Virus genome (UHGV): UHGV-0117658
Origin: a virus
Length of the DNA: 15,978 nt
Reading direction: 5' to 3' (one strand)
Below the pieces are notes generated by a model. That model was given only the letters and a program-made list of their open reading frames with translations. It ran no database searches and was not told the DNA's origin. This document shows, piece after piece, positions 1-15,978 of this stretch. The stretch's first letter is position 1. Each line of letters begins with the position of its first letter. A program made the translations under genes and the position numbers.

Positions 1-995
1 TTGATGGCTTACGTGGAATTTGTGCAGCAATGGTTGCTGTATTCCATCTTTACTGGAGAGCCGGAGGAGAATCAGATATATACTGGTCTCTTGAGTACAT
101 TACACTCAGCAATGTAAAACGCGCCATATATCTAACAGGAGAGTTATCTGTTGGGGTCTTTTTTATGCTGTCTGCTTTTTTATTTTTCAAAAAGGCACTA
201 GCGGACTCCTTCGATGTAAAAAGCTTTGCAATTTCACGATTCATGCGAATTTACCCACCTGTAGTTGTTCTTTTATTTATAATATATATTGCAACATTTA
301 TCATGAATCCGGATAACCATACTCCAGTATCGCAATGGTTTATATCTTCATTACCATTTATATTCAATCCGCCTGGCGCTAACATCAATGGTGTATCGCT
401 CCAGATTGCCACATCTGGTGTGTTCTGGACGTTAGTCTGGGAATTACGCCTATACCTTGCAATTCCATTTTTATATCTGATAATGAAAAACATCAAATAT
501 AAAGAAGCATTTGTTATTTTTTTAATGGGATGTGTTTTATTATTCAAGTATTTTATAAACAATGAACAACACCTGAGTTATATAATGTATTTCCTTGCAG
601 GATTTCTTGTCGCTACAATCAAGAGCAACAAGCGCCCATCAGATATAATCTGCGCTTTATTATTATTCGCAGCCATATATTTTACTCGACATGCTTACAA
701 CACTACAACTCCGCTTTATATGTTTATTGTTTTCTACACAATAAAGTGCGGATGTGATTACTTTGGCTTACTTACATCCCTGCCTGTAACTATGCTGGGA
801 ACCTGCAGTTTCTCCCTTTATTTAGTTCATGGGATAACTCAAACAGTATCTAAACATTATTTATATAGTGCAGGAAACTATGTTTGGCAGATTTGTGCAA
901 TTATTGCGGCAGGTATCATTGCGCCGGTTATGTACAAATATGTCGAAAGTCGCAGCATCATACATAAGCGTCCTCAACTTCAGATTGCAAAGTAG
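1..995 (+). CDS. Acyltransferase family 3 integral membrane protein (putative polysaccharide O-acetyltransferase), 5'-partial; the reading frame is open from the window edge
   Basis: ORF 30..995 has no in-frame stop back to position 3; the upstream translation ...DGLRGICAAMVAVFH matches the N-terminal motif of acyltransferase-3 family enzymes (OafA/Oac type). Product is very hydrophobic with multiple predicted TM segments. Visibly AT-rich relative to the phage structural genes. Confidence 0.7.
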   Translation, partial: DGLRGICAAMVAVFHLYWRAGGESDIYWSLEYITLSNVKRAIYLTGELSVGVFFMLSAFLFFKKALADSFDVKSFAISRFMRIYPPVVVLLFIIYIATFIMNPDNHTPVSQWFISSLPFIFNPPGANINGVSLQIATSGVFWTLVWELRLYLAIPFLYLIMKNIKYKEAFVIFLMGCVLLFKYFINNEQHLSYIMYFLAGFLVATIKSNKRPSDIICALLLFAAIYFTRHAYNTTTPLYMFIVFYTIKCGCDYFGLLTSLPVTMLGTCSFSLYLVHGITQTVSKHYLYSAGNYVWQICAIIAAGIIAPVMYKYVESRSIIHKRPQLQIAK

Positions 996-1002
996 AACAT
1001 TT

Positions 1003-1022
1003 GCGCCCCTGAACAGGGGCGC
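1003..1022. other. GC-rich perfect inverted repeat (gcgcccctg aa caggggcgc) 8 nt after the acyltransferase stop; possible terminator or RNA-stabilising hairpin, but no adjacent U-tract
   Basis: Read directly from sequence: 9-bp arms, 2-nt centre. Confidence 0.3.
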
Positions 1023-1090
1023 TATCCCACCACGCTGTTAAAATTTTGTTTCGTCTTACTTAGCATTTTTAAGTTGCCCATCGGAAAAAC

Positions 1091-1356
1091 GTCACAACCA
1101 TCACGCCCCACAAAAAAAAACCATTAACCATCTGATTATCATGAATAAATGTTGTGATGGTAAAACCATCACAAAACGTAACGTAAACCGTCACACCCTA
1201 TAAATTCAGCGAGTTATAAAACAGAGTTGTGATGTTTTAAGGCCGTCACACTGTGATGCTCTTGTGATGCTCTTGTGATGGTTTTCAATATATGAATTTA
1301 CTTATACATATCATATAGATAAATGATATTTTTTAAATCTGTGATGTTTGTGACGG
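1091..1356. repeat. Array of at least 10 copies of an octamer TGTGAYGG / CCRTCACA in both orientations, embedded in AT-rich DNA; includes a perfect 9-5-9 palindrome (1152..1174) and an 11-bp tandem repeat tgtgatgctct x2.7 (1253..1282); iteron-like
   Basis: Direct reading: gtcacaaccatcacg (1091-1105), ttgtgatggtaaaaccatcacaa (1152-1174), ccgtcacac (1188-1196), ttgtgatg (1227-1234), ccgtcacactgtgatgctcttgtgatgctcttgtgatgg (1243-1282), ctgtgatgtttgtgacgg (1339-1356). Convergent intergenic region with no ORF of 60 aa or more. Confidence 0.6.
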
Positions 1357-1486
1357 TTTTCCGATGCTCCCCCTAAATTTTTGAAAAAATTAGAAGTGGT
1401 CAGAAATCACCCTGATTTGTTGGTGGTTTTGTATATATCTCTGTTAGTGATTTGAGCATTGGTGCAGTACGTTAATGTAGGTATGG

Positions 1487-2419
1487 CTACAGCGGCACCG
1501 CTGAGTAAACAGGCGTCTGATTGTCCGGGTTTCCGTCTGCGTCAAGCAGCTGAACGTCCACGGCATAACGTGGCCGGAATGGATCGGCAAAATTACCACT
1601 TTTCACGGGTTCAGTATGTGCCACCACTCTGGCCATCTTTGGCAGATGAAGCCCGGAAGCCAGTTCCGGATAATGGCTCTCAATCTGTCGTTGTGTCGGT
1701 GTTTTCTGAAGGGGGCTGCCTGTGACGCGGTTCCGGGGTGTCCAGGTGATAGTCATCGTGTCATTTGTAAGATGGACTTTGGTGACCCGTTCACCGTTAA
1801 GCTCAACGCCGGGTCGTATCGTCTGGATCACCGGTAACGTTATGGTATTCCCGCCAGCAGCCCCCTGGCTGAACTCTGCCGGCACTTCGACCGGACGACC
1901 GGTAAACAGTGACTTTTCAGCACCGCCGACGTAAAGCGAACCATCAGGCAACTGGTACCAGATGTAATCCTGGATACTGAATGCCCTGCCCAGGTTGTTC
2001 AGCAACTGATAGCCGGTACCGTTATGGGTGAAATGGGGGATCGGAGTATCGCTGTAAGACACATCGGGTACACTGACACCGATCCCGCTGTTTTCCGTCA
2101 GCCAGCCGGCTACATCCCTTAATGTCGGGTGCTGAAATGAACATGGCCACATCCTTTCAAAAACACCGGCCAGCTCACGAATGAACAGACGCTGATAACC
2201 GTTTTCAGCTGGTTGTGAACGTTCAACATAACCGGTAAACCAGCGCAAAAGCAGGTCGGTATATCCCACATCCAGCCGCACCAGTTTCCCGGTATAATCA
2301 GTGGTTGTCTCTGCGGTAATAAATCCCCGACCGCAACTGTTAAGCTCCAGTACCAGGCTGGCATCAGCCAGATGCACTTCATCCGTTGAAAGGTAAAGAC
2401 GTTTAACTGGTTTCATCAT
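1487..2419 (-). CDS. Hypothetical protein (310 aa), third gene of a coupled three-gene operon; no family recognised
   Basis: Long ORF; start ATGATG overlaps the stop of the upstream gene (TAATG coupling at 2417-2421); codon composition like neighbouring phage genes; no Walker or nuclease motif seen. Confidence 0.6.
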   Translation of the reverse strand: MMKPVKRLYLSTDEVHLADASLVLELNSCGRGFITAETTTDYTGKLVRLDVGYTDLLLRWFTGYVERSQPAENGYQRLFIRELAGVFERMWPCSFQHPTLRDVAGWLTENSGIGVSVPDVSYSDTPIPHFTHNGTGYQLLNNLGRAFSIQDYIWYQLPDGSLYVGGAEKSLFTGRPVEVPAEFSQGAAGGNTITLPVIQTIRPGVELNGERVTKVHLTNDTMTITWTPRNRVTGSPLQKTPTQRQIESHYPELASGLHLPKMARVVAHTEPVKSGNFADPFRPRYAVDVQLLDADGNPDNQTPVYSAVPL

Positions 2420-2964
2420 TAACCCAAAGCATCATTGACGGGCTTCAGCACCTTGCGTTCAAACCACGTCAGTTTTTCTTCATCTTCTCCGGCCGTCTGA
2501 CCACCGGATTGTTCCGCGCTGCCGGTTGTCTGTTTTTTCGCAGTGGTTTTGCCGGTTGATCTGGCTTCCCGCTTTTCCTGTACGCTAATATGTTCCGCCA
2601 GCGTGAAAGTCACCATCCAGGACATTTTCCCGTCCTGCTGTGGTGCATCCAGCATTCCGCTGAATGTGGCCTCACGAAAATTCACCGCTCTGGCAACCTC
2701 ATGCGCAACACGGTATGTCTGTCGTTTCCCGCTACTATCGGTAGCGCTGGCCAGTTCAAAGATACGCTTCAGAATCTCCGGATTTTTGAAAGGAATTTCG
2801 CCACTGATACGCAGCTCCTTTCCTTTTGCCCCCTGCTCAGATTTTGACGTTGCGCTGGTCTGCCCTGACTGGTCTTTATCCTGAAACTGCTGTGAGACTG
2901 TCACGCGCATATTCTTCAGCTGTATGGCCTCGCCGTTAAGCGCCAGTGTCGGGATCGAAGTCAT
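2419..2964 (-). CDS. Hypothetical protein (181 aa), middle gene of the three-gene operon; acidic, low-complexity C-terminal half
   Basis: ORF with ATG at 2964 preceded by aaagggaatgattc (SD-like); overlaps the upstream gene end by 29 nt and is stop/start coupled to the downstream gene. Confidence 0.55.
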   Translation of the reverse strand: MTSIPTLALNGEAIQLKNMRVTVSQQFQDKDQSGQTSATSKSEQGAKGKELRISGEIPFKNPEILKRIFELASATDSSGKRQTYRVAHEVARAVNFREATFSGMLDAPQQDGKMSWMVTFTLAEHISVQEKREARSTGKTTAKKQTTGSAEQSGGQTAGEDEEKLTWFERKVLKPVNDALG

Positions 2965-3661
2965 GAATCATTCCCTTTATTCCATCAAGATTATCGCCAA
3001 CCAGCATCATGGCAGCGGTGTAAACGGCAGACTGCTGCGGAATGTCCTTCACCAGTTCCAGTAACATGGTGTCGGTGTCTCCGCTGGCAGTAAAAACCCA
3101 CGCTCTGGCACTCTTCCCCTGTAAATCGTTCAGGCCGTTGGCCACATCACTGATAAGTTGGTCACGCAGCTGCGTGAACTCGCCCAGCTGTTTTTTCAGC
3201 CCTTCGATATCAAACCCGGCACCCGCCGCCTTTTGTGCCTGGCTGATTGCCGCAGCAGATAAAGCTGCCCTGCTGGTTGGTACAGACAGCGGAATGGACG
3301 CAGGTAACGCAGCGGCGGTTTTCGCAGGGATCTGCATCTTTTCAATAGCCAGCGCTGCGGCGGATTGCGCCAGCCGTTTGACCTGCGTGAATGCCGGGGC
3401 GGGGAAAATCCCGACCAGGTTATTCAGGCTGGCCATAAAGTTTTCCTGTGTCTGTCCGGTGACCATCATAATCACCACGTCCACATTCCCCCCTGTTCCG
3501 GCCAGGCGTTCAGCAAGATAGCGAACAGCATTAACCGGGCTGAGATATGCCCCGTTTGCTGTCTGCTGTCCCAGCCCATAAATCCACGGATGCGCAGGGA
3601 CGATCGAACAGTTCGACGCAGCAACAGAATCCGTGAAGGCCAGACGTGCTTCACGCCACAT
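2936..3661 (-). CDS. Hypothetical protein (241 aa from the internal ATG at 3661), first gene of the three-gene operon
   Basis: The ORF track gives 2936..3697, but the ATG at 3661 is preceded by GGAGGTG at proper spacing, whereas the 3697 start lies deep inside the Tfa-like reading frame. Ala-rich central region; no recognised domain. Confidence 0.55.
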   Translation of the reverse strand: MWREARLAFTDSVAASNCSIVPAHPWIYGLGQQTANGAYLSPVNAVRYLAERLAGTGGNVDVVIMMVTGQTQENFMASLNNLVGIFPAPAFTQVKRLAQSAAALAIEKMQIPAKTAAALPASIPLSVPTSRAALSAAAISQAQKAAGAGFDIEGLKKQLGEFTQLRDQLISDVANGLNDLQGKSARAWVFTASGDTDTMLLELVKDIPQQSAVYTAAMMLVGDNLDGIKGMIHDFDPDTGA

Positions 3662-4031
3662 TTCCAGGCACCTCCGGCCACACAATTTCCGGCGCATCTT
3701 CCGGTTGAATACGGTTCATTAAAACGCGGTATTTTTTCCATGCGGTAAGCAGCAGTGCTTCTTCTTCGGTCGCCATGTCTAAATCTACGGCATCCTGCAA
3801 TGTGGCAATGGCATCACTGGCCTGTTTAAGTAGTCTTTTCTTTTCTGCATCTGCCTCGCTGACTAATGCAGTTCGCATGGCCTCCGCATCATCCACCCAC
3901 GCCTTTCCATTCCATTTTTGCCAGGCATTAGCCGGGGCTGACGTGGTTGTCCCTTCCGGGTAAGCACCAGGCTCGGTGATTACCAGTTCATTACCGTTTG
4001 CGCGGTTGGCATCCAGCGCGGTAACAGCACA
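3651..4031 (-). pseudogene. Tail fibre assembly protein (Tfa/gpG family) C-terminal fragment with no upstream start; remnant of a tail-fibre module
   Basis: My own translation of this frame from 4031 downward gives ...ELVITEPGAYPEG...WQKWNGKAWV...[47 protein letters not shown], which closely parallels the lambda Tfa C-terminal half (QKWNGTAWV...[45 protein letters not shown], recalled from memory). The frame is closed by a stop just upstream of 4031 and lacks the Tfa N-terminal half. Confidence 0.6.
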
Positions 4032-4210
4032 TCACGCTTAAATTCCATTCGCTCAGCGCGGCTTTCAATCGCTGCAGCTGCGGCGACATCTTTCTCCAGC
4101 GCGACAATCTGAATATGCAGGCTGGTTTCCGTGTCCAGAGACTGCTGCTGTCGCAGTAACCGCTCCGCTTCAATTCGTGCGCTGTGGCGCTGTGCCGGTG
4201 ACAGTTGCAT
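3980..4210 (-). pseudogene. M: Terminase small (endonuclease) subunit gpM, N-terminal roughly 70 codons only, truncated by premature stop at the junction with the tfa fragment
   Basis: Sits immediately after the capsid gene N with a strong SD (agggggattta-ATG), as M does in P2. Begins MQLSPAQRH..., resembling the recalled P2 gpM N-terminus (MTSPAQRH...), but is 76 aa instead of about 247 aa; the downstream sequence switches frame into Tfa-like sequence. Confidence 0.5.
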
Positions 4211-4220
4211 TAAATCCCCC

Positions 4221-5249
4221 TTACTCGCCTGCCGGAGGCGCGACAGGTGCCCCGATAGCTACCGCACTTTCATCAAACGCGGCGTACAGTTCCGGATACT
4301 CAACCGCATAACCTTCGTTACGCAGGTATTTGTTTTCGTACTGTTTACGGTCTTCCACAAACTCCGCTTTACGCTGACGCGTGCCGCGCTGGGTGTAGAT
4401 GTGCAGGTTTGGCAGTGTCGTAACAATCATGCGTTTGCCTGGCATAAACGGCGGTACGTAAGCCGTGCGGCCGGCGATGCTGTCAGACAGCAGTTGCGCG
4501 GCGATCTTCTCCGTGGGTTTGTCTGCTTTCTGATACAGACGGAACGACTCCGCCGCGACCAGATCAGCGCCGACAAGAACCACCAGGCGTGGATCATTAC
4601 GGTACTGTGCCGGGATTTTGGCGTTGATAAGGTCGGAGGCCATTGCATCCAGCGACACGTAATCGCCTTTCCCGTCACCGTCAAGCACCACCGCATCAGT
4701 GATGATCTGCTGGCCGTCCTTCCACTCTTTGACGATCTGATGCCAGCCCTTGTTCACATCCTCGCCGTTCGGGTTGGTTTCCGCGTTCGTGGTCTCGGCC
4801 ACTTTGGTACCGTTAAAGCCGATACGCAGCATATCCAGCGCAAACGCCTGATTGGTGAACTCCTGAACACGCTGGAAAAACTCGTTTTCATCGCCGGCGT
4901 TCGCCCAGACAGAAAGCAACTGCCAGGTGAGTGCGGCGCATGAGTCGGTCTCGACCAGACTGTAATCATTACCACTCACGCCCACTTTCTTACGGAAGCG
5001 GCCATCCAGTACACGCCCGGTATACAGGCCAGAGCTGCCAACCGGAACCACCTGCCCCTGCAGCTGATCGACATCGGCAACGGTGATCAGATTCAGGAAA
5101 TCAGACTGCTCCATCAGCGCATTGCGCAGCTGGGTTTCTTTGGGGTCGGTGAGTGCAAACCAGCGTTCGCTGTCGGTCGCCCCGTAGGATTCACGCAGCC
5201 CGGTGTGATACTGAAGCAGAAACTCACGGGCTTTCGCATTTAATTGCAT
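4221..5249 (-). CDS. N: P2-family major capsid protein (gpN-like), 342 aa
   Basis: Size, position between the O-like and M-like genes, SD aaggaaaaagaat-ATG, and resemblance to P2 gpN as I recall it. Confidence 0.85.
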   Translation of the reverse strand: MQLNAKAREFLLQYHTGLRESYGATDSERWFALTDPKETQLRNALMEQSDFLNLITVADVDQLQGQVVPVGSSGLYTGRVLDGRFRKKVGVSGNDYSLVETDSCAALTWQLLSVWANAGDENEFFQRVQEFTNQAFALDMLRIGFNGTKVAETTNAETNPNGEDVNKGWHQIVKEWKDGQQIITDAVVLDGDGKGDYVSLDAMASDLINAKIPAQYRNDPRLVVLVGADLVAAESFRLYQKADKPTEKIAAQLLSDSIAGRTAYVPPFMPGKRMIVTTLPNLHIYTQRGTRQRKAEFVEDRKQYENKYLRNEGYAVEYPELYAAFDESAVAIGAPVAPPAGE

Positions 5250-5283
5250 ATTCTTTTTCCTTAAAGAAAAGTAGTGTTATCCC

Positions 5284-6123
5284 TTACAGGAAATTGAAGC
5301 CTTTTTTGCCCTTGCTGAATTTCTTGTCCGGCAGTTGAGTAACTTTGTTATTCAGCTTGCTGAAGTTTTTCACCAGCTCCGGCAGGTTCCCCACCAGACG
5401 CGCAAAATCTTCGGTGTCCACTACTTCCTTCACGGTGTCCACATCGTCCTGCACATCAGATACCGCTTCTTCCGCCTCACCCAGACGGGTTTCAATAGCA
5501 GATACGCGCTTATCAATGGCATCCAGCGCTTCAGCCAGCGCCTGTAAGGCATCAGACTGTGAAGGTTCCTGCTCCGGGGTCTGCTCCGGTTCTTCGATAC
5601 TGAAAAAATGGCGCCAGCCCTTTTTCGCTGTCTTTGACATTCCCTTTTCCTTTTTAAATTCCCTGACTTCATCAAACGCCAGCGGCTTGTATGGTCCGAT
5701 GCGTTTTCCCCTGGTGCGGCTGAAACGTAACCGTGTGGTGCTTACCCCGGCCGGACTGTCAGTAATGGCCAGTCCCTCAAGATAGGTTTTCCCGGTATTT
5801 CTGAAATTGCCGTCCGGTGTAAACTCCGGTGATAAAAATAAAAGCTGACCGTCTGCATTTGCCTGTAGCAATGAAATCGCCGGACAGAGGCGGGCATATA
5901 AACGAAGAATACCTTCATCATCCCGCTCGGCTTTTACTTCCAGCACCTCCCCCATATTCCCGAAATTACGGGAATGTTCCGGCCATAACAGCGCGGTATA
6001 CAAAGAGGGGTCATATAATTCAGCGGCATCAAGCAACCATTGTTCTTCAATAAATCGCTTATCAACCGTTTCACCCGCAGTGGCGATACAAATCCAGTTT
6101 GTTGCCAGTTGTGAACCTGACAT
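5284..6123 (-). CDS. O: P2-family capsid scaffolding protein (gpO-like), about 279 aa from the ATG at 6123
   Basis: The ORF track starts at 6183, but the in-frame ATG at 6123 has a perfect GGAGG SD and gives a length close to P2 gpO (284 aa). Acidic, coiled-coil-like C-terminal half typical of scaffolds; divergent from P as in P2. Confidence 0.8.
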   Translation of the reverse strand: MSGSQLATNWICIATAGETVDKRFIEEQWLLDAAELYDPSLYTALLWPEHSRNFGNMGEVLEVKAERDDEGILRLYARLCPAISLLQANADGQLLFLSPEFTPDGNFRNTGKTYLEGLAITDSPAGVSTTRLRFSRTRGKRIGPYKPLAFDEVREFKKEKGMSKTAKKGWRHFFSIEEPEQTPEQEPSQSDALQALAEALDAIDKRVSAIETRLGEAEEAVSDVQDDVDTVKEVVDTEDFARLVGNLPELVKNFSKLNNKVTQLPDKKFSKGKKGFNFL

Positions 6124-6266
6124 ATTGCCTCCGTTCATGCTGCGGTTTTCAGTATCGCCAATAAAATTAACCGCCGCATTCACTTCATTTCGGATATAGG
6201 CTATTAGCCGAACACATCAGAAATAAAGCGGGATTTAATATACAAACGCCCGTGCATAATGTGTGC
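6124..6266. promoter_or_regulatory. Divergent intergenic region between O and P; expected location of the divergent late promoters
   Basis: Positional inference from P2 gene organisation; no canonical TGT-N12-ACA dyad found here by eye. Confidence 0.4.
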
Positions 6267-8048
6267 ATGGCTAAATATTCAGAAGAATTAAAAGGCGTTG
6301 CGCGGGCGCTTTATTTAAAACGCTATACCCCGCAGGAAATTGCCAGCGAACTTAATCTGCCTAACAGACGCATTGTCTATTACTGGGCGGAGAAATATTG
6401 CTGGGCGGAATTACTCAGTCATGAATCCACCGAAGATGCATTAAACCGTCGCATTCAGTCACTGACATTACGTGAAGGGAAATCGGAGCTGGAGCTGCGG
6501 GAGCTGGACAGTCTCGTTTCTCACCTGGTGAAACTACGTGCACAGCACAATAAGCATCAGGAAAAGCTGGCAGAAATTAAACACAGTGAAAATGATGCGC
6601 CGGCGCGTCAGTCCGGTGGCGACGAAAAGCCCCGGAAACGTGGCAAGTACAAAAAGAACGACATCAGCGGACTGACACAGGAAGATTTTGACCGGTTCGC
6701 GCTGGAGCACCTTTTCGGTTACCAGAAACACCTTCGCGCTAATCTTCATCAGCAAATCAGGAACATCCTGAAAAGCCGCCAGATTGGTGCAACCTGGTAT
6801 TTCTCAATAGAAGCCTTTGAGAATGCGGTCATGACAGGCGATCCGCAAATCTTCCTGTCCGCATCAAAGGCTCAGGCGGAAGTATTCCGCAGCTATATCG
6901 TCAACATTGCGGAGCAGTATTTCGGCGTGGAGCTGACGGGAAACCCCATCCGCCTCTCCAACGGCGCGGAGATGCGATTCCTGTCCACCAACAAGAACAC
7001 CGCCCAGTCATACAGCGGCCATCTGTACTGCGATAAATATTTCTGGGTACCCAACTTTGCAAAATTAAACGAAGTGGCCAGCGCGATGGCCACACACGAC
7101 AAATGGCGAACCACCTACTTTTCCACCCCCAGCAGCAAAACGCACCAGGCGTACCCGTTCTGGACTGGTGAAGAATGGAAGCGCGGTGACAAAAAACGCG
7201 CGCGCGTACAATTTCCCACGGAGAAGGAGCTGCGCGACGGTGGACGGTTATGTCCTGATGGGCAGTGGCGCTACATCATCACAATGGAAGACGCGAGCGC
7301 AGGCGGGTTTAATCTCGCCAGCATCGGGAAGCTGCGCAACCGCTACAACCGCGACACTTTCAACATGCTGTATATGTGCGTGTTCGTGGACAGCAAGGAC
7401 AGCGTATTTTCGTTCTCTCACGTAGAACGCTGCTGTGTAGATCCGGATATCTGGGAGGATCATGACGAAAACCTGCCCCGGCCGTTCGGCAACCGTGAAG
7501 TGTGGGCGGGTTATGACCCGGCTCGCAGCGGAGACACCTCCACCTTCGTGATCATCGCGCCGCCGATAGTGGCCGGCGAAAAATTTCGGGTACTGCGTGT
7601 ATTCCACTGGCAGGGGATGAACTGGAAGTGGCAGGCGGCACAGATTAAGAAGCTGTTTGGCCAGTACAACATGACCTACATCGGCATTGATATCACTGGA
7701 CTGGGTAGCGGTGTCTTTGAAGACGTTCAGCACTTTGCCATGCGTCAGGCAGTGGCGATCCGCTACGGCGTCGAGACCAAAAATCGTCTGGTGATGAAGA
7801 TGATCGACGTTATCGAAGACGGCCGCGTGGAATGGGATAAGGAGAAGACCGAAATCGCCGCCAGCTTTATGACCATCCGCCGTACGTCCACGGCCAGCGG
7901 CAACGCAATGACTTTCGTCGCCGATCGCACAGCAGAAACAGGACACGCAGACAGTTTCTGGGCTATCGCCCATGCCATTGACAACGAGCCATTAAACTTT
8001 GAAAACCAGCGAAAATCACGCTGGGGTAACTTAGGGAAAGCAGCATGA
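6267..8048 (+). CDS. P: Terminase large (ATPase) subunit, gpP-like, about 593 aa
   Basis: Conserved blocks shared with P2 gpP as recalled (LYLKRYTPQEIA, NILKSRQIGATWYF, SASKAQA.VFRSYI, FLSTN.NTAQS, YFSTPS.KTHQAYPFWTG, GYDP.RSGD). Start taken at the ATG at 6267 rather than the track's GTG at 6252; stop overlaps the Q start (ATGA at 8045-8048). Confidence 0.85.
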   Translation: MAKYSEELKGVARALYLKRYTPQEIASELNLPNRRIVYYWAEKYCWAELLSHESTEDALNRRIQSLTLREGKSELELRELDSLVSHLVKLRAQHNKHQEKLAEIKHSENDAPARQSGGDEKPRKRGKYKKNDISGLTQEDFDRFALEHLFGYQKHLRANLHQQIRNILKSRQIGATWYFSIEAFENAVMTGDPQIFLSASKAQAEVFRSYIVNIAEQYFGVELTGNPIRLSNGAEMRFLSTNKNTAQSYSGHLYCDKYFWVPNFAKLNEVASAMATHDKWRTTYFSTPSSKTHQAYPFWTGEEWKRGDKKRARVQFPTEKELRDGGRLCPDGQWRYIITMEDASAGGFNLASIGKLRNRYNRDTFNMLYMCVFVDSKDSVFSFSHVERCCVDPDIWEDHDENLPRPFGNREVWAGYDPARSGDTSTFVIIAPPIVAGEKFRVLRVFHWQGMNWKWQAAQIKKLFGQYNMTYIGIDITGLGSGVFEDVQHFAMRQAVAIRYGVETKNRLVMKMIDVIEDGRVEWDKEKTEIAASFMTIRRTSTASGNAMTFVADRTAETGHADSFWAIAHAIDNEPLNFENQRKSRWGNLGKAA

Positions 8049-9064
8049 AAAAACGGAAATACAGGGAACGCCGCACCGCCAGCAAGCCGCGCCATATGAG
8101 CCTTATTACCCTGGGTAAACCGGAACCCATTCTGACGACCGGCACAAACTACACAGACGTCTGGTATGACAATGAAGCGGAACACTGGACGCTCCCGATT
8201 GACCGGCTGGCGCTGGCGCAACTGGTGAACCTGAACGCGCAGCACGGCGGTGTGCTGTATGCCCGTCGCAATATGGTGACGGCAAACTATAAAGACGGCG
8301 GACTGACGCATGAACAGCTTGGTGCAGCCGTGTTCGACTGGCTGACCTTCGGTGATGTGGCCATTCTGAAAGTGCGTAACGGCTGGGGGGATGTGGTGGC
8401 ACTGTACCCGCTGCCGGCACTCTATACCCGCCAGCGTAAGACCGGGGAGTTTGTGGTACTGCAGCAGGGTGAACCGATGATTTATCCGCCTGAAGATATT
8501 ATTTTTCTCAGGCAGTACGATCCGCAACAGGCGATTTATGGTCTGCCGGATTATATCAGCGGTATCCATTCTGCCCTGCTTAACGGTGAGGCAACAATTT
8601 TTCGTCGGCGTTACTACCATAACGGCGGACACACAGGTGGCATGATCTACTGTAACGACCCAAATATGACTGATGAAGTGGAAGAAGAAATTATTCAGAA
8701 GCTGGAGCAGTCAAAGGGGATCGGGAACTTCAGCACCATGTTTGTGAACATCCCCAAAGGCGATCCGGACGGCATCAAATTTATCCCGATTGGGGATATC
8801 AGCGCCAAAGATGAGTTTCAGAACATCAAGAGCATCAGCGCCCAGGACGTACTGACCGCGCATCGATTCCCGGCAGGACTGGCGGGGATTATCCCGACGA
8901 ACGGCGCAGTAATGGGAGATGTTGAGAAAGCGTCCAAAACCTACCGCAAAGCAGAAATTTTGCCCATTCAGCGCATGTTTACCGCCGCAGTGGAACAGGA
9001 AAGTGATGTACCGCCCCACCTGTACCTTAATTTCCTGAAAGACAGTGAGCTGGAAGGTGATTAA
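8045..9064 (+). CDS. Q: Portal protein, gpQ-like, 339 aa
   Basis: Translationally coupled to P; size and order (P then Q) match the P2 packaging module; internal motifs (LFRR.YY.NG.H.G, DGIK.IP) resemble P2 gpQ as recalled. Confidence 0.85.
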   Translation: MKKRKYRERRTASKPRHMSLITLGKPEPILTTGTNYTDVWYDNEAEHWTLPIDRLALAQLVNLNAQHGGVLYARRNMVTANYKDGGLTHEQLGAAVFDWLTFGDVAILKVRNGWGDVVALYPLPALYTRQRKTGEFVVLQQGEPMIYPPEDIIFLRQYDPQQAIYGLPDYISGIHSALLNGEATIFRRRYYHNGGHTGGMIYCNDPNMTDEVEEEIIQKLEQSKGIGNFSTMFVNIPKGDPDGIKFIPIGDISAKDEFQNIKSISAQDVLTAHRFPAGLAGIIPTNGAVMGDVEKASKTYRKAEILPIQRMFTAAVEQESDVPPHLYLNFLKDSELEGD

Positions 9065-9117
9065 TGTTCGCAAAAAGGCTAAAATATCATCGTTTTCCAA
9101 CTTCCGGAGCGATGGAT

Positions 9118-9393
9118 ATGCGGGTAATGAAGGTTTACTGTCCGGTATGTGAGGCAAGGGCTGTTATCAAAAAAACAGCCCGAAAACACAAGGAACTGTC
9201 GGATTTATATTGCGCGTGTACCGATGTTGAATGTGGTCACACTTTTGTGATGAATATGACATTCTCACATACCATCAGCCCCAGCGCCAAATCCAGCGAT
9301 GCGTTGATCGCCACTATCTGTAACAGCCTTGATATCCAGCAAAAGCAGCTGATGTTAAAGTTTCTGAGTCAGGACGGCACTGCTGCCGCATAG
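9118..9393 (+). CDS. ogr: Ogr/Delta-family zinc-finger late transcription activator, about 91 aa with a C-terminal extension
   Basis: CPVC-x19-YCACTDVECGHTFV matches the Ogr/Delta signature (C-x2-C ... C-x-C-x4-C-G-H-T-F). Start chosen at the ATG at 9118 with GGAG 9 nt upstream; the track ORF 9064..9393 is in the same frame. Confidence 0.7.
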   Translation: MRVMKVYCPVCEARAVIKKTARKHKELSDLYCACTDVECGHTFVMNMTFSHTISPSAKSSDALIATICNSLDIQQKQLMLKFLSQDGTAAA

Positions 9394-9398
9394 AAAAA

Positions 9399-9426
9399 AG
9401 CACCGCTACCGGTGCTTTTATTTTCT
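9399..9426 (+). terminator. Rho-independent terminator (stem agcaccg/cggtgct, loop ctac, then ttttatttt) immediately after the ogr-like gene; A-run upstream makes it potentially bidirectional
   Basis: Read directly from sequence. Confidence 0.6.
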
Positions 9427-9532
9427 GAGATGTAACAGATTCCCATCTATCAACGTCGATGAATGACCAAGTGATTAATAGTCCCCCCCTCCTAAACATG
9501 ATATTATCTTTCCAAATTTTGGGAGGCATCTT

Positions 9533-10252
9533 ATGTTAATAGTCTCAGTTCTTAAATGTAGTAAAGAGTTTACCCCTAAACACGCCCAATGGCTTCATCG
9601 TCAGTTCAAAGATATTCCATCTATATGTTTAACCGATGCAGATAATATTCCTGGAGTTAACACAACCCCTTTGCTTTATAACTGGCCGGGATGGTGGTCT
9701 AAAATTGAACTATTTAATCCTAATCACCCAGTCCTTGGAGACCAAGATTTACTCTATTTTGACGTAGATGTTGTGGTCACGGGAGATATTCATATTTTCG
9801 AAGGTGCGAAGAAATTTACAATGCTTCGGGAGTTTAACCATGCCTCAAGAGTAAACTCATCAATAATGATGATTCCGGCGTCGATTAAAAAGACGATTTG
9901 GGAACAATTCATTATTGATCCTGAGAAAATTATGCGCAATTGTCAGACTGAAGACAAATGGGGTGATCAGGGATTTCTCGGTAGCATCATAAAACCAGCC
10001 CTATGGCAGGATATCATTCCTGGCTCAATTGTTAGTTATAAATGTGACATCGCCACCCCCTCGATGATTGGCTTCAATGCAAATTTAGCCTCTGAGGCTG
10101 CGACAGGGAAAGTCCCTGATAATGTGGCGGTTGTTTGCTTTCATGGCAGTCCACGCCCCTGGCGTACTGGTTTTGATTGGGTTCCTTCGTTTTCCCTGCG
10201 GGATACTCTGTACGGTAAATTAAAGAACTTTAAAATAAGAATGAAGCAATAA
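9533..10252 (+). CDS. Glycosyltransferase family 8-like (LgtC/RfaJ-type) nucleotide-sugar transferase, 239 aa; AT-rich accessory gene
   Basis: DxD motif in LYFDVDVVV, WGDQGFL and CFHGSPRPW blocks parallel GT8 motifs (YLDIDVLV, QDQDILN, HYCGPAKPW in LgtC, recalled from memory). Strong SD gggagg 6 nt before the ATG. Clearly lower GC than the flanking phage genes. Confidence 0.6.
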   Translation: MLIVSVLKCSKEFTPKHAQWLHRQFKDIPSICLTDADNIPGVNTTPLLYNWPGWWSKIELFNPNHPVLGDQDLLYFDVDVVVTGDIHIFEGAKKFTMLREFNHASRVNSSIMMIPASIKKTIWEQFIIDPEKIMRNCQTEDKWGDQGFLGSIIKPALWQDIIPGSIVSYKCDIATPSMIGFNANLASEAATGKVPDNVAVVCFHGSPRPWRTGFDWVPSFSLRDTLYGKLKNFKIRMKQ

Positions 10253-10320
10253 AGATAACGCCCCTATTGCTTCAATGTTCGCTCCTTCCCCTAACAATAA
10301 AGTTAGGCACTAGTGAACCG

Positions 10321-12978
10321 TTACTTTTCCCGGCCAAATATCCAGCAGCGGAATGTTTCCGGCATCCGTTGCATATCCCCTTTACCACGATTATGGCGCT
10401 CACTTACCGCGCTGCGCGTGGTGCTTTGTCTGATAAACCGGCGCTCATTGCCGTTTTTAAGCAGCTTTTTAATTTCCGTTAACGTGAACGGAATACGCTG
10501 CCGGTGTGCTGCGGCGACCTCTTCCATGTGATTGAAATTAACCGCGATTTCATTTTCATCTGATGAATGATTGATGCCATAAGGTGCCAGTTCATCCAAG
10601 TAATCAAACAGCTCCCAGAACTCCTGCACCAGAGGATGATCCTTTTTAAGTGCCTGACAACGTTCAACGGCCAGCGCGGTGATGGCTTCACGCGTTTTTT
10701 CTATACGTTCAACCGGCACCGGTACAACAAGTGCAAGCGCCTCCAGCAAGCCCACAAGCTGCGCGTGATTCTTTGCAATACGGATATGGCGAATACTGCT
10801 ATTAGACTCCAGCTCATTCCTAGCTCGCTCGTACCCCCTGCCGAACGTCTGCATGATTTCTTTTTCGCGCATGGTGGCCAGTAATGTGAATCCGGATACC
10901 TGGCTAACGGGGAGTTGTTCAAGTCGTTCTGCAGCGTGGCGCGTCTGAATGGACTGGCCGCGCTTGTCGGTATAGATGTGGATGATACGCTCCAGAAACG
11001 CCTTGCTGCCGTCTGTGTCGGCATTTTGCGCTATCACAATACTTCCCCTGAACGGCGGCTCATACGTCTCGTTATTGTTCGATTTGATACCCACGGCGCG
11101 GGAGGCACGACCGTTATACAGTGATTTCAGCTCGTCCCAGTCAAAAGCGCGTTGCTTGGCGTTATCGGTAGTACGGTCGCCCTCAATCAGCACAACCGGC
11201 AGATTACCGACCTGGGCGAAGTTACGGCCACGCGCGGCGGCGGTAGATTTAGATGGGTCAAACCCTTCGTATTCCTCACGGCCGGCGAGCTTCCAGAGAA
11301 ATTCTATCAGCGTGGATTTACCTGTCCCCGGCTCGCCCACGATTTCCAGAAACGGAAATGACTTGTCACGCTCGCGGATTTGTTCGGCAAACAGCGACCC
11401 CAGCCAGAACGCCAGCGCCACATACCCTTTTTCACCAAATGCCGTCCAGATATCGTCTACCCAACCCGTAGTAAACTCGTTCAGCTTCGGATTCAGATCC
11501 AGCGCCGGCGTGAGGCTCAGGCTCTTAACGCTGGCACTGTTGATTTCGAAGTAATCCTCGTCGTTCATCTCATACAGCCGGCCATCGCAAACGGCCACGC
11601 GGTTAAACAACCAGGCGGCATAATCCTTGTTATAGCCGATGAAATTCTGCGTCTTTACCTCTTTGATTTCAGGGAGGCGCATCTGGATGAACTTATCCAG
11701 CTGTTTGGTGCTGCCTGTGTACACCGCCCCTTTGGCGATGTGCAGCAGACGCTTTTTGAACTCGGCGGAGCTGGTGAGCTGATTAGCCGTGAAAGTATCT
11801 TTCACGGCTGGCCGGTTAGGCATACTGACTTTCACGTAATACCAGGACTCGTCCGTAGGTTCAGACCGCTGAAAGTAAAGCGGCGTCAGCCAGCAGTTAG
11901 CTATTTCGGTCACGCCGCCTGACTCTTTAACCGCCCGTTCTTTGGCCTCCCACTCCATCACCACTTCGGTACCGGTATTGGTGATGCGCTCATAGGCTCG
12001 CATATACCTGTCCAGATCCAGCTCAAACCAGTACATGCGGGAGTTATGCTCAAAGTAGAACGAGTGCCACTCGTTATGCTGATGCATGAGCAGCGCTTTC
12101 TCAGTCGGGCTTTTTGCCAGAAGGAGATCGCCATAGTAGCGATAATTTTTAATGTCCGACTTACTGAACCGGTTACGTAACAACAGGTCATTCCAGTCCA
12201 GCGATGCCGATGATTTCACCGGCTGCGCGGCACGAGTTTTCCATCCTGCAGCATCACTACGGGCAGCGAACGCCAGTGTGTGCTTTGTGCCGGCTTTATC
12301 GCCGTCAAACGCCCATACAAGACGTGGACGTGGTTTTTCACCCAGTTCTTTGGCCAGCGTATCCAGTGCGGCCAGCGGATAGTTGTTACTGCTCAGTGTG
12401 GCAACTGCAGGTAACCCTGCCTGGCACAGACTCAGCGCGTTGAAGATTCCCTCAGTGATCCAGATTTCGTTCACTTCCTGCAGGTTGATAAAGGGAGGAA
12501 CCCACCAGTGACCGACATAGCTTCCCCTGATGTTGGCTTTCTGCTTACCGAAGCGCTGCGGCTGGTCAATGATGCGCTCCCATGTTGCACCGCATGACAG
12601 CGAAAATCTGACCGTTGCCGACCCCATGCCATCTTTCACGAATGCACCCTGGGTAAAACAGCCTTTTAATGGCTCAGTCTCCAGCCCTCTGGCCTCGCGC
12701 AGATACGCCTCAGCTACTGCATGGGGGTTATCTTCTGTGGTCTGGTAACGTTTTGACCAGTCTTCAAAGATATCCGGATACAGCTCTTTCACGACAATCT
12801 GATGTGCGCAGTTATTTTCACGGCCACATTTCAGAATCCAGGGCTTTTCTATGCTGGTAAATAATTCGCGCTTACGACAGGCAGGGCAAACGCCCTGCTG
12901 CAAATACTTATCCCGCTCTTTAAATTCAAAGTCCCGAACAAGACGGCGCACAACGTCCTGTTGTATCGTTTCGTTCAT
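10321..12978 (-). CDS. Replicative primase-helicase, P4-alpha-like architecture (N-terminal Cys4 zinc ribbon, TOPRIM primase domain, C-terminal P-loop NTPase), about 885 aa
   Basis: CPACRK...CGRENNCAH zinc ribbon; TOPRIM-like ITEGIFNALSL and FDGDKAG motifs; Walker A GEPGTGKST. The track ORF begins at a TTG (13014); the first ATG (MNETIQQ) at 12978 is used here. Confidence 0.8.
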   Translation of the reverse strand: MNETIQQDVVRRLVRDFEFKERDKYLQQGVCPACRKRELFTSIEKPWILKCGRENNCAHQIVVKELYPDIFEDWSKRYQTTEDNPHAVAEAYLREARGLETEPLKGCFTQGAFVKDGMGSATVRFSLSCGATWERIIDQPQRFGKQKANIRGSYVGHWWVPPFINLQEVNEIWITEGIFNALSLCQAGLPAVATLSSNNYPLAALDTLAKELGEKPRPRLVWAFDGDKAGTKHTLAFAARSDAAGWKTRAAQPVKSSASLDWNDLLLRNRFSKSDIKNYRYYGDLLLAKSPTEKALLMHQHNEWHSFYFEHNSRMYWFELDLDRYMRAYERITNTGTEVVMEWEAKERAVKESGGVTEIANCWLTPLYFQRSEPTDESWYYVKVSMPNRPAVKDTFTANQLTSSAEFKKRLLHIAKGAVYTGSTKQLDKFIQMRLPEIKEVKTQNFIGYNKDYAAWLFNRVAVCDGRLYEMNDEDYFEINSASVKSLSLTPALDLNPKLNEFTTGWVDDIWTAFGEKGYVALAFWLGSLFAEQIRERDKSFPFLEIVGEPGTGKSTLIEFLWKLAGREEYEGFDPSKSTAAARGRNFAQVGNLPVVLIEGDRTTDNAKQRAFDWDELKSLYNGRASRAVGIKSNNNETYEPPFRGSIVIAQNADTDGSKAFLERIIHIYTDKRGQSIQTRHAAERLEQLPVSQVSGFTLLATMREKEIMQTFGRGYERARNELESNSSIRHIRIAKNHAQLVGLLEALALVVPVPVERIEKTREAITALAVERCQALKKDHPLVQEFWELFDYLDELAPYGINHSSDENEIAVNFNHMEEVAAAHRQRIPFTLTEIKKLLKNGNERRFIRQSTTRSAVSERHNRGKGDMQRMPETFRCWIFGREK

Positions 12979-13017
12979 AAATAATCCAGATGTGAAATAA
13001 TGGGTAAAAGGCAAAAA

Positions 13018-13236
13018 CTATATTCTGTACTGCTTGTTATATCGCTCATGTGTCATTAGTTCCCAGCTTCTGCCCTTATCCTTACTCAGTAATCGCCAGC
13101 GATAAGAAACATGAACAGAGAAATAATGTTTTGGCTTAATAACCTGATATACCTTTTTGCCGTTGTAATATTCTGTCAGCACTGAAAATGCCTTGTGAAT
13201 GACACTTTCACTTGCATGAGAGGTCACTGTAAGCAT
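13018..13236 (-). CDS. Possible small basic protein (72 aa), start 2 nt after the exonuclease stop; uncertain
   Basis: ORF only; AT-rich; no SD recognised; occupies the otherwise 260-bp gap between the exonuclease and primase genes. Confidence 0.25.
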   Translation of the reverse strand: MLTVTSHASESVIHKAFSVLTEYYNGKKVYQVIKPKHYFSVHVSYRWRLLSKDKGRSWELMTHERYNKQYRI

Positions 13237-13238
13237 CG

Positions 13239-13808
13239 TTATTTCACACTGGCTATTTTTACAAGATACATCCAGACATAAGAAACAACTTTAGCCTGAT
13301 GAATGGCATCATATAAAGCGTGATGTTTAACACCATCAAACTTAATAATATTACGAACATTCAGCCCAAGTGTTTTTGACAGTTCAACAACCGTTCTTAC
13401 ATCACGGTCATTCCAGTAGTACCAAAGTGGATCGGCAAACCCGCATTTCTCTGATGCATTACGTAAAATAACATTGTCGAACGCTGCACTATTCCCCCAT
13501 ACCTGTACTTTAGATGGGTCAGAATGCTCAGTAATAAAAGCTTCCAGATTAGCTAACGTCAGAGGCAAGTCCAGACAATCGTCATTAAGCAGCTCGCTAC
13601 GCGCTTCGGCATCCTGACGCATCCACCATAATACGGTTTCTGACCCCATAGTGAGACCGTGGCCTACACAGCTGCCCAGGCTGACACGTTGATAAAACTG
13701 TTCACCCATTTCGCCAGTTTCAGGGTCAAAGAATACAGCACCGATAGAAGCAATCGCAGAAGTCGGTTTATTATCCATTGTTTCAAGGTCAATCATTAAA
13801 TGTTTCAT
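13239..13808 (-). CDS. DEDDh-type 3'-5' exonuclease (DnaQ-like fold), 189 aa
   Basis: N-terminal MIDLET motif (Exo I, D-x-E), a central ...FD... block and C-terminal H-x4-D (HHALYDA) are characteristic of the DnaQ/RNase T superfamily; SD aaggaaccgat-ATG. Confidence 0.75.
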   Translation of the reverse strand: MKHLMIDLETMDNKPTSAIASIGAVFFDPETGEMGEQFYQRVSLGSCVGHGLTMGSETVLWWMRQDAEARSELLNDDCLDLPLTLANLEAFITEHSDPSKVQVWGNSAAFDNVILRNASEKCGFADPLWYYWNDRDVRTVVELSKTLGLNVRNIIKFDGVKHHALYDAIHQAKVVSYVWMYLVKIASVK

Positions 13809-13817
13809 ATCGGTTCC

Positions 13818-14153
13818 TTAACGTTGGGAAGCTGCAACAGATTTAAGATGCGAGTTATTACTTTTTAACGCTGTGGTAGCCAGCGACATAAGACCGGAAA
13901 TGTTATTTTCAGTTGGTATATTTCCGCCAAATACCATAAGCGTGATTTTGTGCAGTTCTTCAAAATCATCACTATCATTATTAAAGCGAGCAGTGGAGGT
14001 TATACCCTCAAGGCATTTTGCAAGCTGAATGTTTAATTCCATTAACTGCAAGCCATCGCTATGTACAGAGAATGTTTCTTTATCAATAGTTTTTGCCTGA
14101 GCGTGATAGTTTTGCAACAGACTACGAATCAGCGTGGCATATTTAGTCTTCAT
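13818..14153 (-). CDS. Hypothetical protein (about 111 aa from the ATG at 14153), AT-rich early-region gene
   Basis: ORF with GGGGA SD before the ATG at 14153 (the track's 14165 start is a TTG); no recognised domain. Confidence 0.5.
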   Translation of the reverse strand: MKTKYATLIRSLLQNYHAQAKTIDKETFSVHSDGLQLMELNIQLAKCLEGITSTARFNNDSDDFEELHKITLMVFGGNIPTENNISGLMSLATTALKSNNSHLKSVAASQR

Positions 14154-14179: not shown

Positions 14180-14461
14180 CTAACGAGCACTTTTATCTTT
14201 CGTGAATAAACGGTTCTTCCAGTCATGCCATTCAGGCGGGGCAATTTGAGCCAAATGAATGGCATAAGCATCCCATTCCCCCCGATGGATATAGATTTCC
14301 CCACCTTTTTTTGATGGATTTAGAGGGTCTTTCATGCGGATTACCGGCAGTTTTCCAGCCGTGGCCATTTTGCGAATTGCAGCAGGCGTTTTGCCTATAT
14401 ATTCGGCAAAAAGCTCAGGGGTCACCAACTCTGAAAGCGCCTTTTCTGCTGGTTCCTTCAT
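14180..14461 (-). CDS. cox: Cox-like/excisionase-family small DNA-binding protein (93 aa), divergent from the repressor
   Basis: Position and orientation identical to P2 cox relative to C and int; size 93 aa (P2 Cox 91 aa); ...GKLPVIRMKDP... resembles the Cox/Xis-type wing region as recalled. Confidence 0.65.
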   Translation of the reverse strand: MKEPAEKALSELVTPELFAEYIGKTPAAIRKMATAGKLPVIRMKDPLNPSKKGGEIYIHRGEWDAYAIHLAQIAPPEWHDWKNRLFTKDKSAR

Positions 14462-14569
14462 CTGTGGTATCCTTCGTTAGTTTGGGTTCCTAGGGCGCTT
14501 TAAGTCGTTCTAGGGTTCTTTTGTCAAGGTTCTTTTGTAAGAACCAATAATAGTTACGATACAAGAACC
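14462..14569. promoter_or_regulatory. Immunity switch region between cox and C: divergent promoters with multiple GGTTCT half-sites (direct and inverted) and two CTAGGG motifs
   Basis: Direct reading: gggttcc (14484), gttctaggg (14507), ggttcttttgt x2 (14514, 14529; 15-bp period), inverted aagaacc x2 (14539, 14563); ctaggg at 14490 and 14510. Confidence 0.55.
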
Positions 14570-14869
14570 ATGTCAAGAAATTATGCGGAGAAACTCCGGC
14601 AGATCCGGAAAGCTGAAGGGTTAACTCAAAAAGATTTTTCAGAGCTTACTGGGGTAGCTCTTGGAACAATAAAAAAGTACGAAACTGGCCATCAGCCAGC
14701 TCGTGCAGAAGTCTTAGAAAGTGTTATAGAGGTACATATGTTTGAAAAATATACACTCTGGTTAATGACAGATAAGACGGCACCAATTGCGGGGCAGGTG
14801 TCCCCGTCTCTCTCCCCTGATGGGCAAGACAACATAACATCATCCCGTTCCACCCGGAAAATTGGCTAA
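14570..14869 (+). CDS. C: P2 C-type immunity repressor (HTH), 99 aa
   Basis: Exactly 99 aa like P2 C; HTH LTQKDFSELTGVALGTIKKYETG; the FEKYTLWLMTDKTAPIAGQVSP block parallels P2 C (FTKYTLWFMTNQIAPESGQIAP, recalled from memory). Confidence 0.8.
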   Translation: MSRNYAEKLRQIRKAEGLTQKDFSELTGVALGTIKKYETGHQPARAEVLESVIEVHMFEKYTLWLMTDKTAPIAGQVSPSLSPDGQDNITSSRSTRKIG

Positions 14870-14935
14870 ACATCTGGTTTTTCTATGCGTTAGCGCAAAA
14901 TTTACATAATGATTCATACATCGGAGGGCTTCGCT

Positions 14936-15928
14936 ATGTCGATTAAGAAGCTTGATGATGGTCGTTTTGAAGTGGACGTTAGACCGCGCGGAACCTCAGG
15001 AAGAAGGATTCGACGCAAATTTGACAGAAAGGCGGAAGCACAGGCATACGAGCGGTATGTACTGACAAACTTTCACGATAAAGAATGGCAGGATAAACCC
15101 GCAGACAGGAGGCTTGTATCCGAGTTAATTTCTTTATGGTGGAGCTACCATGGAAAGAATCACAACTATGGTGACTCATATAAAAAGCGTTTGGAAAAAA
15201 TCAACCGAGAAATGGCGGAACCCAGAGTGTACGAGCTTACCCGCAACTTTCTGATGAAATATCGTGCAGAACGACTTCATAGTGGAGTATCTGCTGGCAC
15301 GGTAAACAGGGATTTCTGTTCCATGTCCAGCATGTTCAGTTTGCTGATAGATATGGAAGAATTTCATCACGAAAACCCGTTTCGCGCCGTGAAGAAGTTA
15401 CGTCTGGAAAACACAGAAATGTCATTTCTGTCCGAAGAAGAGATCCACCATTTGCTGAATGCCCTTACAGGGGATGATCGCAGAGTTGTCGTTCTTTGCC
15501 TGAATACAGGAGCACGATGGGGTGAAGCCAGTAATCTTAAAGCTGAAAACGTGATAAGTAACCGTGTGACCTTTGTTAAGACCAAAACCGGCCCAGCTCG
15601 TACTGTTCCGATATCGAAGGAAATCGCGGACTACATCCTTACACGCAAATCGGGGAAATTGTTCGATACCAACTATGAGCGAGTTCGCGATGTTCTTCGT
15701 AAGATTAAGCCAGACTTGCCGAAAGGTCAGGCACTGCATGTTTTACGCCATACCTTCGCAACACATTTCATGATCAACGGCGGGAATATCATCACGCTAC
15801 AGCGTATTTTGGGTCATACAACAATCGAGCAAACAATGACATATGCTCACTTCGCCCCAGATTATCTGACTGATGCCATACGATTTAACCCTATGCGTGG
15901 GAGTGTCCACATAATGTCCACCGACTAG
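14936..15928 (+). CDS. int: P2-family tyrosine integrase, about 330 aa
   Basis: Begins MSIKKLDDGRFEVDVRP after a GGAGG SD (the track ORF starts 9 codons upstream); catalytic-region blocks CLNTGARWGEA, NRVTFVKTKT, HVLRHTFATHFMINGG, ITLQRILGHT.IEQTM.YAHFAP match P2 Int as recalled. Confidence 0.9.
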   Translation: MSIKKLDDGRFEVDVRPRGTSGRRIRRKFDRKAEAQAYERYVLTNFHDKEWQDKPADRRLVSELISLWWSYHGKNHNYGDSYKKRLEKINREMAEPRVYELTRNFLMKYRAERLHSGVSAGTVNRDFCSMSSMFSLLIDMEEFHHENPFRAVKKLRLENTEMSFLSEEEIHHLLNALTGDDRRVVVLCLNTGARWGEASNLKAENVISNRVTFVKTKTGPARTVPISKEIADYILTRKSGKLFDTNYERVRDVLRKIKPDLPKGQALHVLRHTFATHFMINGGNIITLQRILGHTTIEQTMTYAHFAPDYLTDAIRFNPMRGSVHIMSTD

Positions 15929-15950
15929 GGCATTTTAGGGTGTATTAGGG
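15926..15950 (+). repeat. Three TAGGG direct repeats at a 10-bp period overlapping the int stop codon; candidate arm-type/Cox-type protein-binding sites of the attachment region
   Basis: Direct reading: cTAGGGcatttTAGGGtgtatTAGGGtta; the same pentamer occurs twice in the cox-C switch region. Confidence 0.45.
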
Positions 15951-15978
15951 TTAATAAGGCGCTCATAACATATTGATT

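Follow-up and report, generated by a model that had tools for sequence, protein, structure and literature searches.

The question raised by this locus is whether a short pentamer, TAGGG, that recurs at one-turn intervals at the end of an integrase gene (int) and again between cox and the repressor gene C marks the sites of one protein acting at two places. The original prediction, made for the window (the whole 15,978-nt stretch of UHGV-0117658 analysed here), held that three copies overlap the int stop, that the same pentamer occurs twice between cox and C, that one Cox-like protein acts at both the attachment site and the early promoter, and that the attachment site lies at or just beyond the window edge.

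By homology, the window is a P2-like (Peduoviridae) Escherichia coli prophage that resides in the raiA terminator, upstream of pheL. Chromosomal prophages of many pig- and cattle-associated E. coli match its last 1.9 kb at 100% (e.g., NZ_CP075462.1); the element is 29.1 kb long and has P2-type portal, terminase, scaffold and capsid genes. In the orientation of the window, RefSeq annotates a Cox family DNA-binding protein (minus strand), an HTH protein, a tyrosine integrase and the host genes pheL and pheA, with raiA adjoining the opposite prophage end, and the prophage gene order is att-int-C-cox, as in P2. Escherichia phage ESSI2_ev239 (Peduoviridae, Evevirus) matches about 69% of positions 1-14000 of the window at about 90% identity. 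The cox-C-int module itself is missing from deposited phage genomes, in which a DNA search returned a single 48-bp match; the closest Cox among 50,697 phage records is 54% identical, and none of the deposited phage records encodes a Cox more than 60% identical to that of the window.

The early operon, on the minus strand, encodes an 897-aa Toprim-domain primase-like protein and a 3'-5' exonuclease (10321-13014 and 13239-13808) in the place of P2 gpA and gpB, and because of these genes the replication module is not P2-like, whereas the switch, the integrase and the head genes are. On the same strand, positions 13018-13236 code for a 72-aa hypothetical protein whose counterpart in some relatives (L062, L068 and L070), at the matched position between the exonuclease and Toprim genes, has a ParE_like Pfam match. 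A 239-aa hypothetical ORF (9533-10252, plus strand), situated between an ogr/Delta-like zinc-finger gene and the end of the early operon, may be cargo; directly past it, TAGGG occurs on the minus strand at 10262 and 10289, out of phase.

The first gene of this leftward operon, cox (14180-14461, minus strand; WP_000662537.1), codes for 93 amino acids. Its product, read from 14461 to 14180, is assigned to the Cox family of winged-helix proteins by a profile match (PF10743 at 87 bits, against a cutoff of 27.5) and by a hit to the P2 Cox structure (PDB 4LHF, E=5e-9), and RefSeq likewise names it 'Cox family DNA-binding protein'. Its identity is 30% to P2 Cox and 40% over 47 residues to WPhi Cox.

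Two arrays of pentamers are present in the module, both on the plus strand. The att-arm array (15926-15959) begins with three exact TAGGG copies (15926-15930, 15936-15940 and 15946-15950) spaced in steps of exactly 10 bp, just as originally described, and ends after a 9-bp step with a fourth, weaker box, TAAGG (15955-15959); the int stop codon TAG (15926-15928) sits in the first box. The switch array (14482-14515) is composed of TTGGG at 14482, TAGGG at 14491, TAAGT at 14501 and TAGGG at 14511, in steps of 9, 10 and 10 bp, and its two exact copies, 20 bp apart on the same strand, are the pair already noticed between cox and C. The earlier count of three plus two therefore stands for the exact copies, but each array has four boxes once the weaker in-phase copies are included. 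The switch array lies between the cox ATG and the predicted start of the early promoter Pe, over the place that Pc has in P2, where a P2-type Cox system has several directional boxes about 10-11 bp apart. Boxes of the same kind recur in attP (15926, 15936, 15946 and 15955), with the core on one flank and the int-proximal Int arm sites on the other.

The phased arrays are non-random. TAGGG occurs 13 times on the two strands of the whole window, against 19 copies expected from shuffles, and 5 of the 13 fall within the two short non-coding stretches of the arrays. A two-copy phased pattern with at most one mismatch was found three times, one of them unrelated, against a mean of 0.41 in 200 shuffles. 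A search of the whole 29.1-kb prophage with a degenerate pattern of three phased boxes hit these two loci alone, with five overlapping matches against a shuffle mean of 0.21; the sequence searched is the joined NT1F10 prophage, which is not letter-identical to the window and in which a window position corresponds to the prophage coordinate minus 13072.

The att-arm array is embedded in a P2-type attachment site. The tyrosine integrase (14909-15928, plus strand; PF24624 and PF00589; RefSeq start 14936) contains within its 3' end two putative P2-type Int arm sites (15903-15921, minus strand), which read GTGTCCAC and ATGTCCAC on the plus strand, are 11 bp apart, and align with the annotated P' arm Int site of P2. 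On the minus strand they correspond to TGGACA and fit the published consensus tgTGGaCa (PMC3448106). A matching pair, CGTCCACATAGTGACCACAT, is found in the raiA-side arm, and two direct repeats that fit the consensus are thus located on each side of the core. The raiA-side arm, whose sequence is almost that of its P2 counterpart, lacks TAGGG and contains a 20-mer, ATTGAAATAAAAGGATTTAT, identical to the stretch annotated as IHF-bound in P2, which makes it a candidate IHF site in the arm away from int, as expected of a P2-type attP.

Extension of the sequence to the right and comparison with empty sites defined the core. The pheL-side flank is carried by all 5,426 of the 5,426 complete E. coli genomes, and in those free of the prophage homology begins at L001 7913, equivalent to window position 16012. 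The empty site, attL and attR have in common a 22-bp block, AACGC[G/A]CCTTCGGGCGCGTTTT (window-equivalent 16012-16033), in which, from the G/A difference, strand exchange is located to the right of position 6. Counted from the int stop the core is 84 bp away, and it spans 34-55 bp past the window end; the order away from int is Int arm sites, TAGGG array and core, with an arm-to-core distance of 90 bp against 87 bp in P2. The attachment site was therefore correctly placed just beyond the window edge: its core begins 34 bp past the last base, not far from the repeats, and its int-proximal arm starts inside the window. The 22-bp block is the raiA intrinsic terminator (L001 7913-7934; L002 about 21290-21269), and integration rebuilds a terminator at both junctions, so that transcripts of int would stop short of the pheL promoter and raiA would retain a terminator of its own. 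The homologous site is used by relatives in Salmonella, Enterobacter, Cedecea and a Yersinia-like contig (L042); a literature search found nothing relevant on a P2-like attachment site at raiA/pheL.

An inverted repeat on the plus strand is placed between the att boxes and the core (left arm AATAAGGCGCTCAT at 15953-15966, which includes box 4; right arm ATGAGAGCCTTATT at window-equivalent 15984-15997; L001 7852-7898). Its loop holds a perfect match to the IHF consensus, AATCAATATGTTA (15966-15978, minus strand); every clade A relative retains the consensus, which reads WATCAANNNNTTR on the minus strand, and three compensatory pairs occur in the stem among eight relatives, all with the IHF consensus. 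Possible roles for this element are those of a hairpin or terminator at the int 3' end, of an IHF site on the Cox side of attP, or of an additional Cox box in inverted orientation.

At the other locus, the gene order is accompanied by a strong predicted Pe (14539-14576, minus strand; -35 TTGACA at 14576-14571, -10 TATTAT at 14552-14547; 11 of 12 matches in a promoter scan), whose -35 element overlaps the start codon of C. The C gene (14570-14869, plus strand) codes for a 99-aa immunity repressor with an HTH_3 domain. Putative C operators of the P2 kind, the TGGTTCTT direct repeats at 14546-14539 and 14570-14563 (minus strand), are 24 bp apart and flank the Pe -10, and an inverted copy, GGTTCTT, is seen at 14528-14534, so that the presumed operators together span 14528-14576. 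The TAGGG switch array is on the cox side of Pe. The promoter scan of the switch gave no good sigma-70 match for Pc on the plus strand.

The identity of the protein that recognises the boxes can be approached through relatives. The loci compared were 11 from one-per-species genomes, 41 from viral contigs and 10 from assemblies with a 94%-identical Cox; in each of them the switch was read, as was the int-proximal arm where the contig reached far enough. Four phased boxes of the type T[AT][AG]G[GT] are present at both loci where Cox is 78-100% identical to that of the window (E. coli, Salmonella, Enterobacter, Cedecea) and has the putative recognition helix KTP[AS]A[IV]RKMA; the same helix is found with a Cox of about 67% identity in Serratia, which has a different attB and again TAGGG-type boxes at both loci. 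At about 61% identity (L039-L042), the helix is KTPKAIRQMV and the boxes are mixed, TTAGAG and TTAGGG. At about 55%, in elements that integrate at the start of pflA, the helix is KTPRAVVEMA and both loci have [TC]AGAG[CT], while in L051-L056 the helix is KTVDAVVAMA and both loci have [TAG][AG]GAAC. P2 Cox, with the helix KSTGAVRRMI, recognises TTAAA(G/C)NC(A/C).

TAGGG is thus found at both loci only with a Cox at least 60% identical to that of the window. In a table of counts each motif is confined to its own clade and present there at both loci, and the 6-mers shared in a cross-comparison of switches with arms form the same block structure as the clades. Across these alignments, each change of Cox lineage brings the same change of box at the switch and in the arm, and the putative recognition helix shifts with the box (..AIRKMA, ..AVVEMA and ..AVVAMA, against ..AVRRMI in P2). 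Read in this way, the series of helices and boxes, with RK accompanying GGG, and VE or VA accompanying AGC or AAC, amounts to a putative natural specificity code for this winged-helix family.

Conversely, the boxes appear from the same alignments to follow neither the C repressor nor Int. In 19 distinct relatives with a Cox at least 78% identical, the switch array is kept while the adjoining C operators change: at least seven types of C and operator are found directly to the right of the unchanged array, and the operator repeat changes with the C type. The presumed operators belong to at least seven unrelated repeat types in relatives with a nearly identical Cox and array, and the exchange boundary directly right of box 4 points to a frequent swapping of the immunity module. 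Concerning Int, its lineages largely, though incompletely, parallel those of Cox in this sample. L021 (Cox 96%, Int 70%), the clearest natural swap, is readable as far as the int stop, and its att arm had no match in E. coli genomes or metagenomes, while viral contigs gave the L021 contig alone; L062 was used instead. In L062, with a Cox of 94% and an Int of 71% identity, the arm is otherwise unalignable, and the boxes TGGGG, TAGGG, TAGTC and TAGGA stand in exact 10-bp steps, with the int stop again within a box.

A candidate counterexample, L014 (Candidatus Erwinia dacicola), which pairs a Cox of 57% identity with TAGGG arms, was rejected as a deletion remnant. At about 5000-6400 (window orientation) it contains a decayed copy in which the 3' half of cox is fused to the 3' end of C, and it retains int and the TAGGG-type att arm.

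Taken together, these observations make it probable that the TAGGG-type pentamers are Cox recognition boxes, four to each array and repeated in the same orientation at every helical turn, and that through them Cox represses Pc and directs excision. Specifically, Pe would fire and Cox would be the first protein made; Cox molecules would then occupy both arrays cooperatively, all on the same face of the DNA. On the switch array (14482-14515), Cox would repress the transcription of C and int, locking in lytic growth, while on the arm array (15926-15959), flanked on one side by the Int arm sites (15903-15921) and on the other by the core and a probable IHF site, it would bend the arm, with the result that Int excises the prophage and integration is inhibited. 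Binding, cooperativity, bending and regulatory outcome are inferred from what is known of P2 Cox, WPhi Cox and 186 Apl. The prediction of one Cox-like protein at both places accordingly keeps its core, on the computational support of the P2 layout, the Cox family and the co-variation, and has to be amended in one respect: by analogy with P2, the switch array would cover Pc and the leader of the early transcript rather than Pe itself. The dual design of a Cox acting in both switch and excision is already well known and would not surprise a specialist; no description of a TAGGG-type Cox box sequence was found in the literature.

The explanation that competes best concerns the switch array, part of which coincides with a terminator-like hairpin on the plus strand (14488-14526), flagged by a scan, in which a stem of 14488-14498 with 14505-14515 is followed by a T-rich tail. 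Its arms are switch boxes 2 and 4, and boxes 1 and 3 are outside the stem. All 18 of 18 distinct relatives fold it, with a dG of -8.7 to -18.8 kcal/mol, and the opposite strand is always less stable; the stem positions pair in 92% of cells on the plus strand against 72% on the minus strand, and four pairs are changed on both sides across relatives, as in compensatory evolution. This suggests that a rightward transcript contains an RNA element here, which may act as an attenuator within the Pc leader or form the 3' end of a short antisense RNA to the cox leader. Since boxes 2 and 4 are the hairpin arms, part of their conservation may serve the hairpin.

Pushed to its end, this would mean that the switch pair consists of the arms of an RNA hairpin and not of Cox sites, that the att array alone or neither array is bound by Cox, and that the shared pentamer is incidental. 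The terminator-like structure with its T-tract (14488-14515), the strand bias in pairing, the compensatory changes and the folding in every relative speak in favour of it, as does the fact that CTAG is self-complementary, so that direct repeats of CCTAGG are inverted repeats of each other. However, boxes 1 and 3 keep consensus and phase outside the stem; in relatives they are often perfect TAGGG (L006, L008 and L021), and the L008 switch has four perfect copies. Moreover, the motif is shared by the att array, where boxes 1-3 form no comparable hairpin, and the other Cox clades change the motif at both loci together. The RNA and Cox roles are, furthermore, compatible with each other, and a hairpin in place of Cox sites is held to be unlikely. 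A combination of the two, in which the switch array would carry two codes and boxes 2 and 4 would serve both as Cox sites and as the arms of a plus-strand-specific, terminator-like RNA hairpin located from the cox start towards the C operators, is put forward tentatively, as an appreciable but doubtful possibility. If the hairpin were functional, rightward transcription, in the direction of Pc, would either be attenuated at this point or stop here and leave a short antisense RNA to the cox leader, and an RNA layer would be added to the P2-type lysis-lysogeny switch, for which no description of the kind was found in the literature. Rfam has no known RNA family in the switch or in the att arm, the host Phe leader being the only match.

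Still less likely, and given very little weight, is the binding of the repeats by another protein; the candidates are the C repressor, host factors such as IHF or Fis, and Int, for which the repeats would be additional arm sites. In favour of this, the array directly adjoins the Int arm sites within attP, where Int and IHF bind, and the Int lineage is partly correlated with the box type. Yet the arm specificity of Int, TGTCCAC, is constant in all clades, P2 included, whereas the boxes differ, and TAGGG is absent from the other arm; to our knowledge, Int has no role in the switch. The reading of the array as Int arm sites was rejected on these grounds, given that true P2-type arm sites adjoin the array, are present in the other arm, and are constant across clades. 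As to the C repressor, at least seven types of C and operator swap while the boxes remain unchanged, and the candidate role of the array as C operators was rejected, these being the TGGTTCTT repeats at Pe that swap independently of the boxes. Host factors are disfavoured by a motif that differs among phages of closely related enterobacterial hosts and by the separate IHF consensus adjoining the array.

Lastly, the least probable reading of all, that the repeats act by DNA structure alone (phased G-tract curvature or a G-quadruplex) or are due to chance, draws on a canonical G3N1-7 x4 pattern in some relatives (the L005 arm and the L008 switch), but the window fails this pattern at both loci, the TAGAG and GGAAC clades keep position and phase without G-tracts, the G-quadruplex was rejected as unconserved and missing from other clades, and chance is excluded by the shuffle statistics for the window and the whole prophage.

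Recognition of the boxes by Cox, the reading preferred here, provides a full, testable map of operators and att site for a so far uncharacterised lineage of Cox, frequent among prophages of E. coli, Salmonella, Enterobacter, Citrobacter and Serratia; the attachment site of the present prophage is now defined as the raiA terminator, upstream of pheL. The matched changes of helix and box could help studies of DNA selection by winged-helix proteins of the Cox type, while the understanding of P2-like switches stays unaltered.

One of the known systems with which the arrays can be compared is lambda Xis, which has no role in a lysis-lysogeny switch and belongs to a family unrelated at the sequence level. 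The Xis sites bend the P arm for excision. They comprise X1, X1.5 and X2, head to tail and one turn apart, between the Int arm and IHF sites of the P arm (PMC7498355), and recombination directionality factors bind direct repeats one turn apart (PMC7498355). Apl of phage 186 is both an excisionase and a switch regulator, recognising 6-bp direct repeats with a spacing of 10-11 bp; seven operators are found between pR and pL and five at attP, and binding needs three adjacent sites (PMC7498355). It differs from the present system in its Cox/Apl subgroup, in a CI-type repressor with CII, and in 186-type Int arm sites (tgccGCCActt).

For WPhi Cox, the published target is a 12-nt direct repeat located in the Pe-Pc region; the protein acts as a repressor of Pc and, in vitro, stimulates excision (PMC5009727). 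The WPhi sequence contains GTCC(C/T)TTCTAGG twice in the switch, 20 bp apart, and GTCCCTTATAGG in the int-proximal arm, and this TTCTAGG-type pair resembles the TTC(C)TAGGG at 14488 and 14508 here. Unlike the present arrays, the WPhi repeat unit is longer, with two switch copies visible, the Int stop is upstream of the arm sites, and attB is different.

In layout, the system resembles P2. In the GenBank record of P2, the annotation away from int begins with an Int P' arm site within the 3' end of int, continues with 74 bp bound by Cox and then the core, and closes with an IHF site followed by an Int P arm site; the annotated Cox-bound stretch overlaps the int stop, as does the att-arm array here; in its switch, the Pe -35 is over the C start codon, O1 and O2 flank the Pe -10, and Pc and the cox-boxes are near the cox start. 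The two systems share the PF10743 Cox, the gene order, the switch geometry, the place of the att array, boxes about one turn apart, and a nearly identical sequence of the Int arm sites and of the P-arm IHF site. They differ in the box, which is TAGGG-like instead of TTAAA(G/C)NC(A/C), and in its arrangement: against the at least six degenerate boxes of mixed orientation and the footprint of about 70 bp in P2, four clean direct boxes were recognised per site, together with one possible inverted copy beyond the window. When the P2 consensus is run on P2 itself, boxes appear at 10-bp steps in the switch and in both orientations in the arm, far more degenerate than here. Furthermore, the raiA terminator serves as attB, a Toprim primase stands against gpA, and an IHF consensus is found in the Cox-side arm, for which the P2 record annotates none, making this arm look more like the lambda P arm with its Int, Xis and IHF sites and core. 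Within attP, the sole differences from P2 are the stretch from arm site to core and the core itself, which is what would be expected if the specificity of Cox and the attB differ between the two phages.
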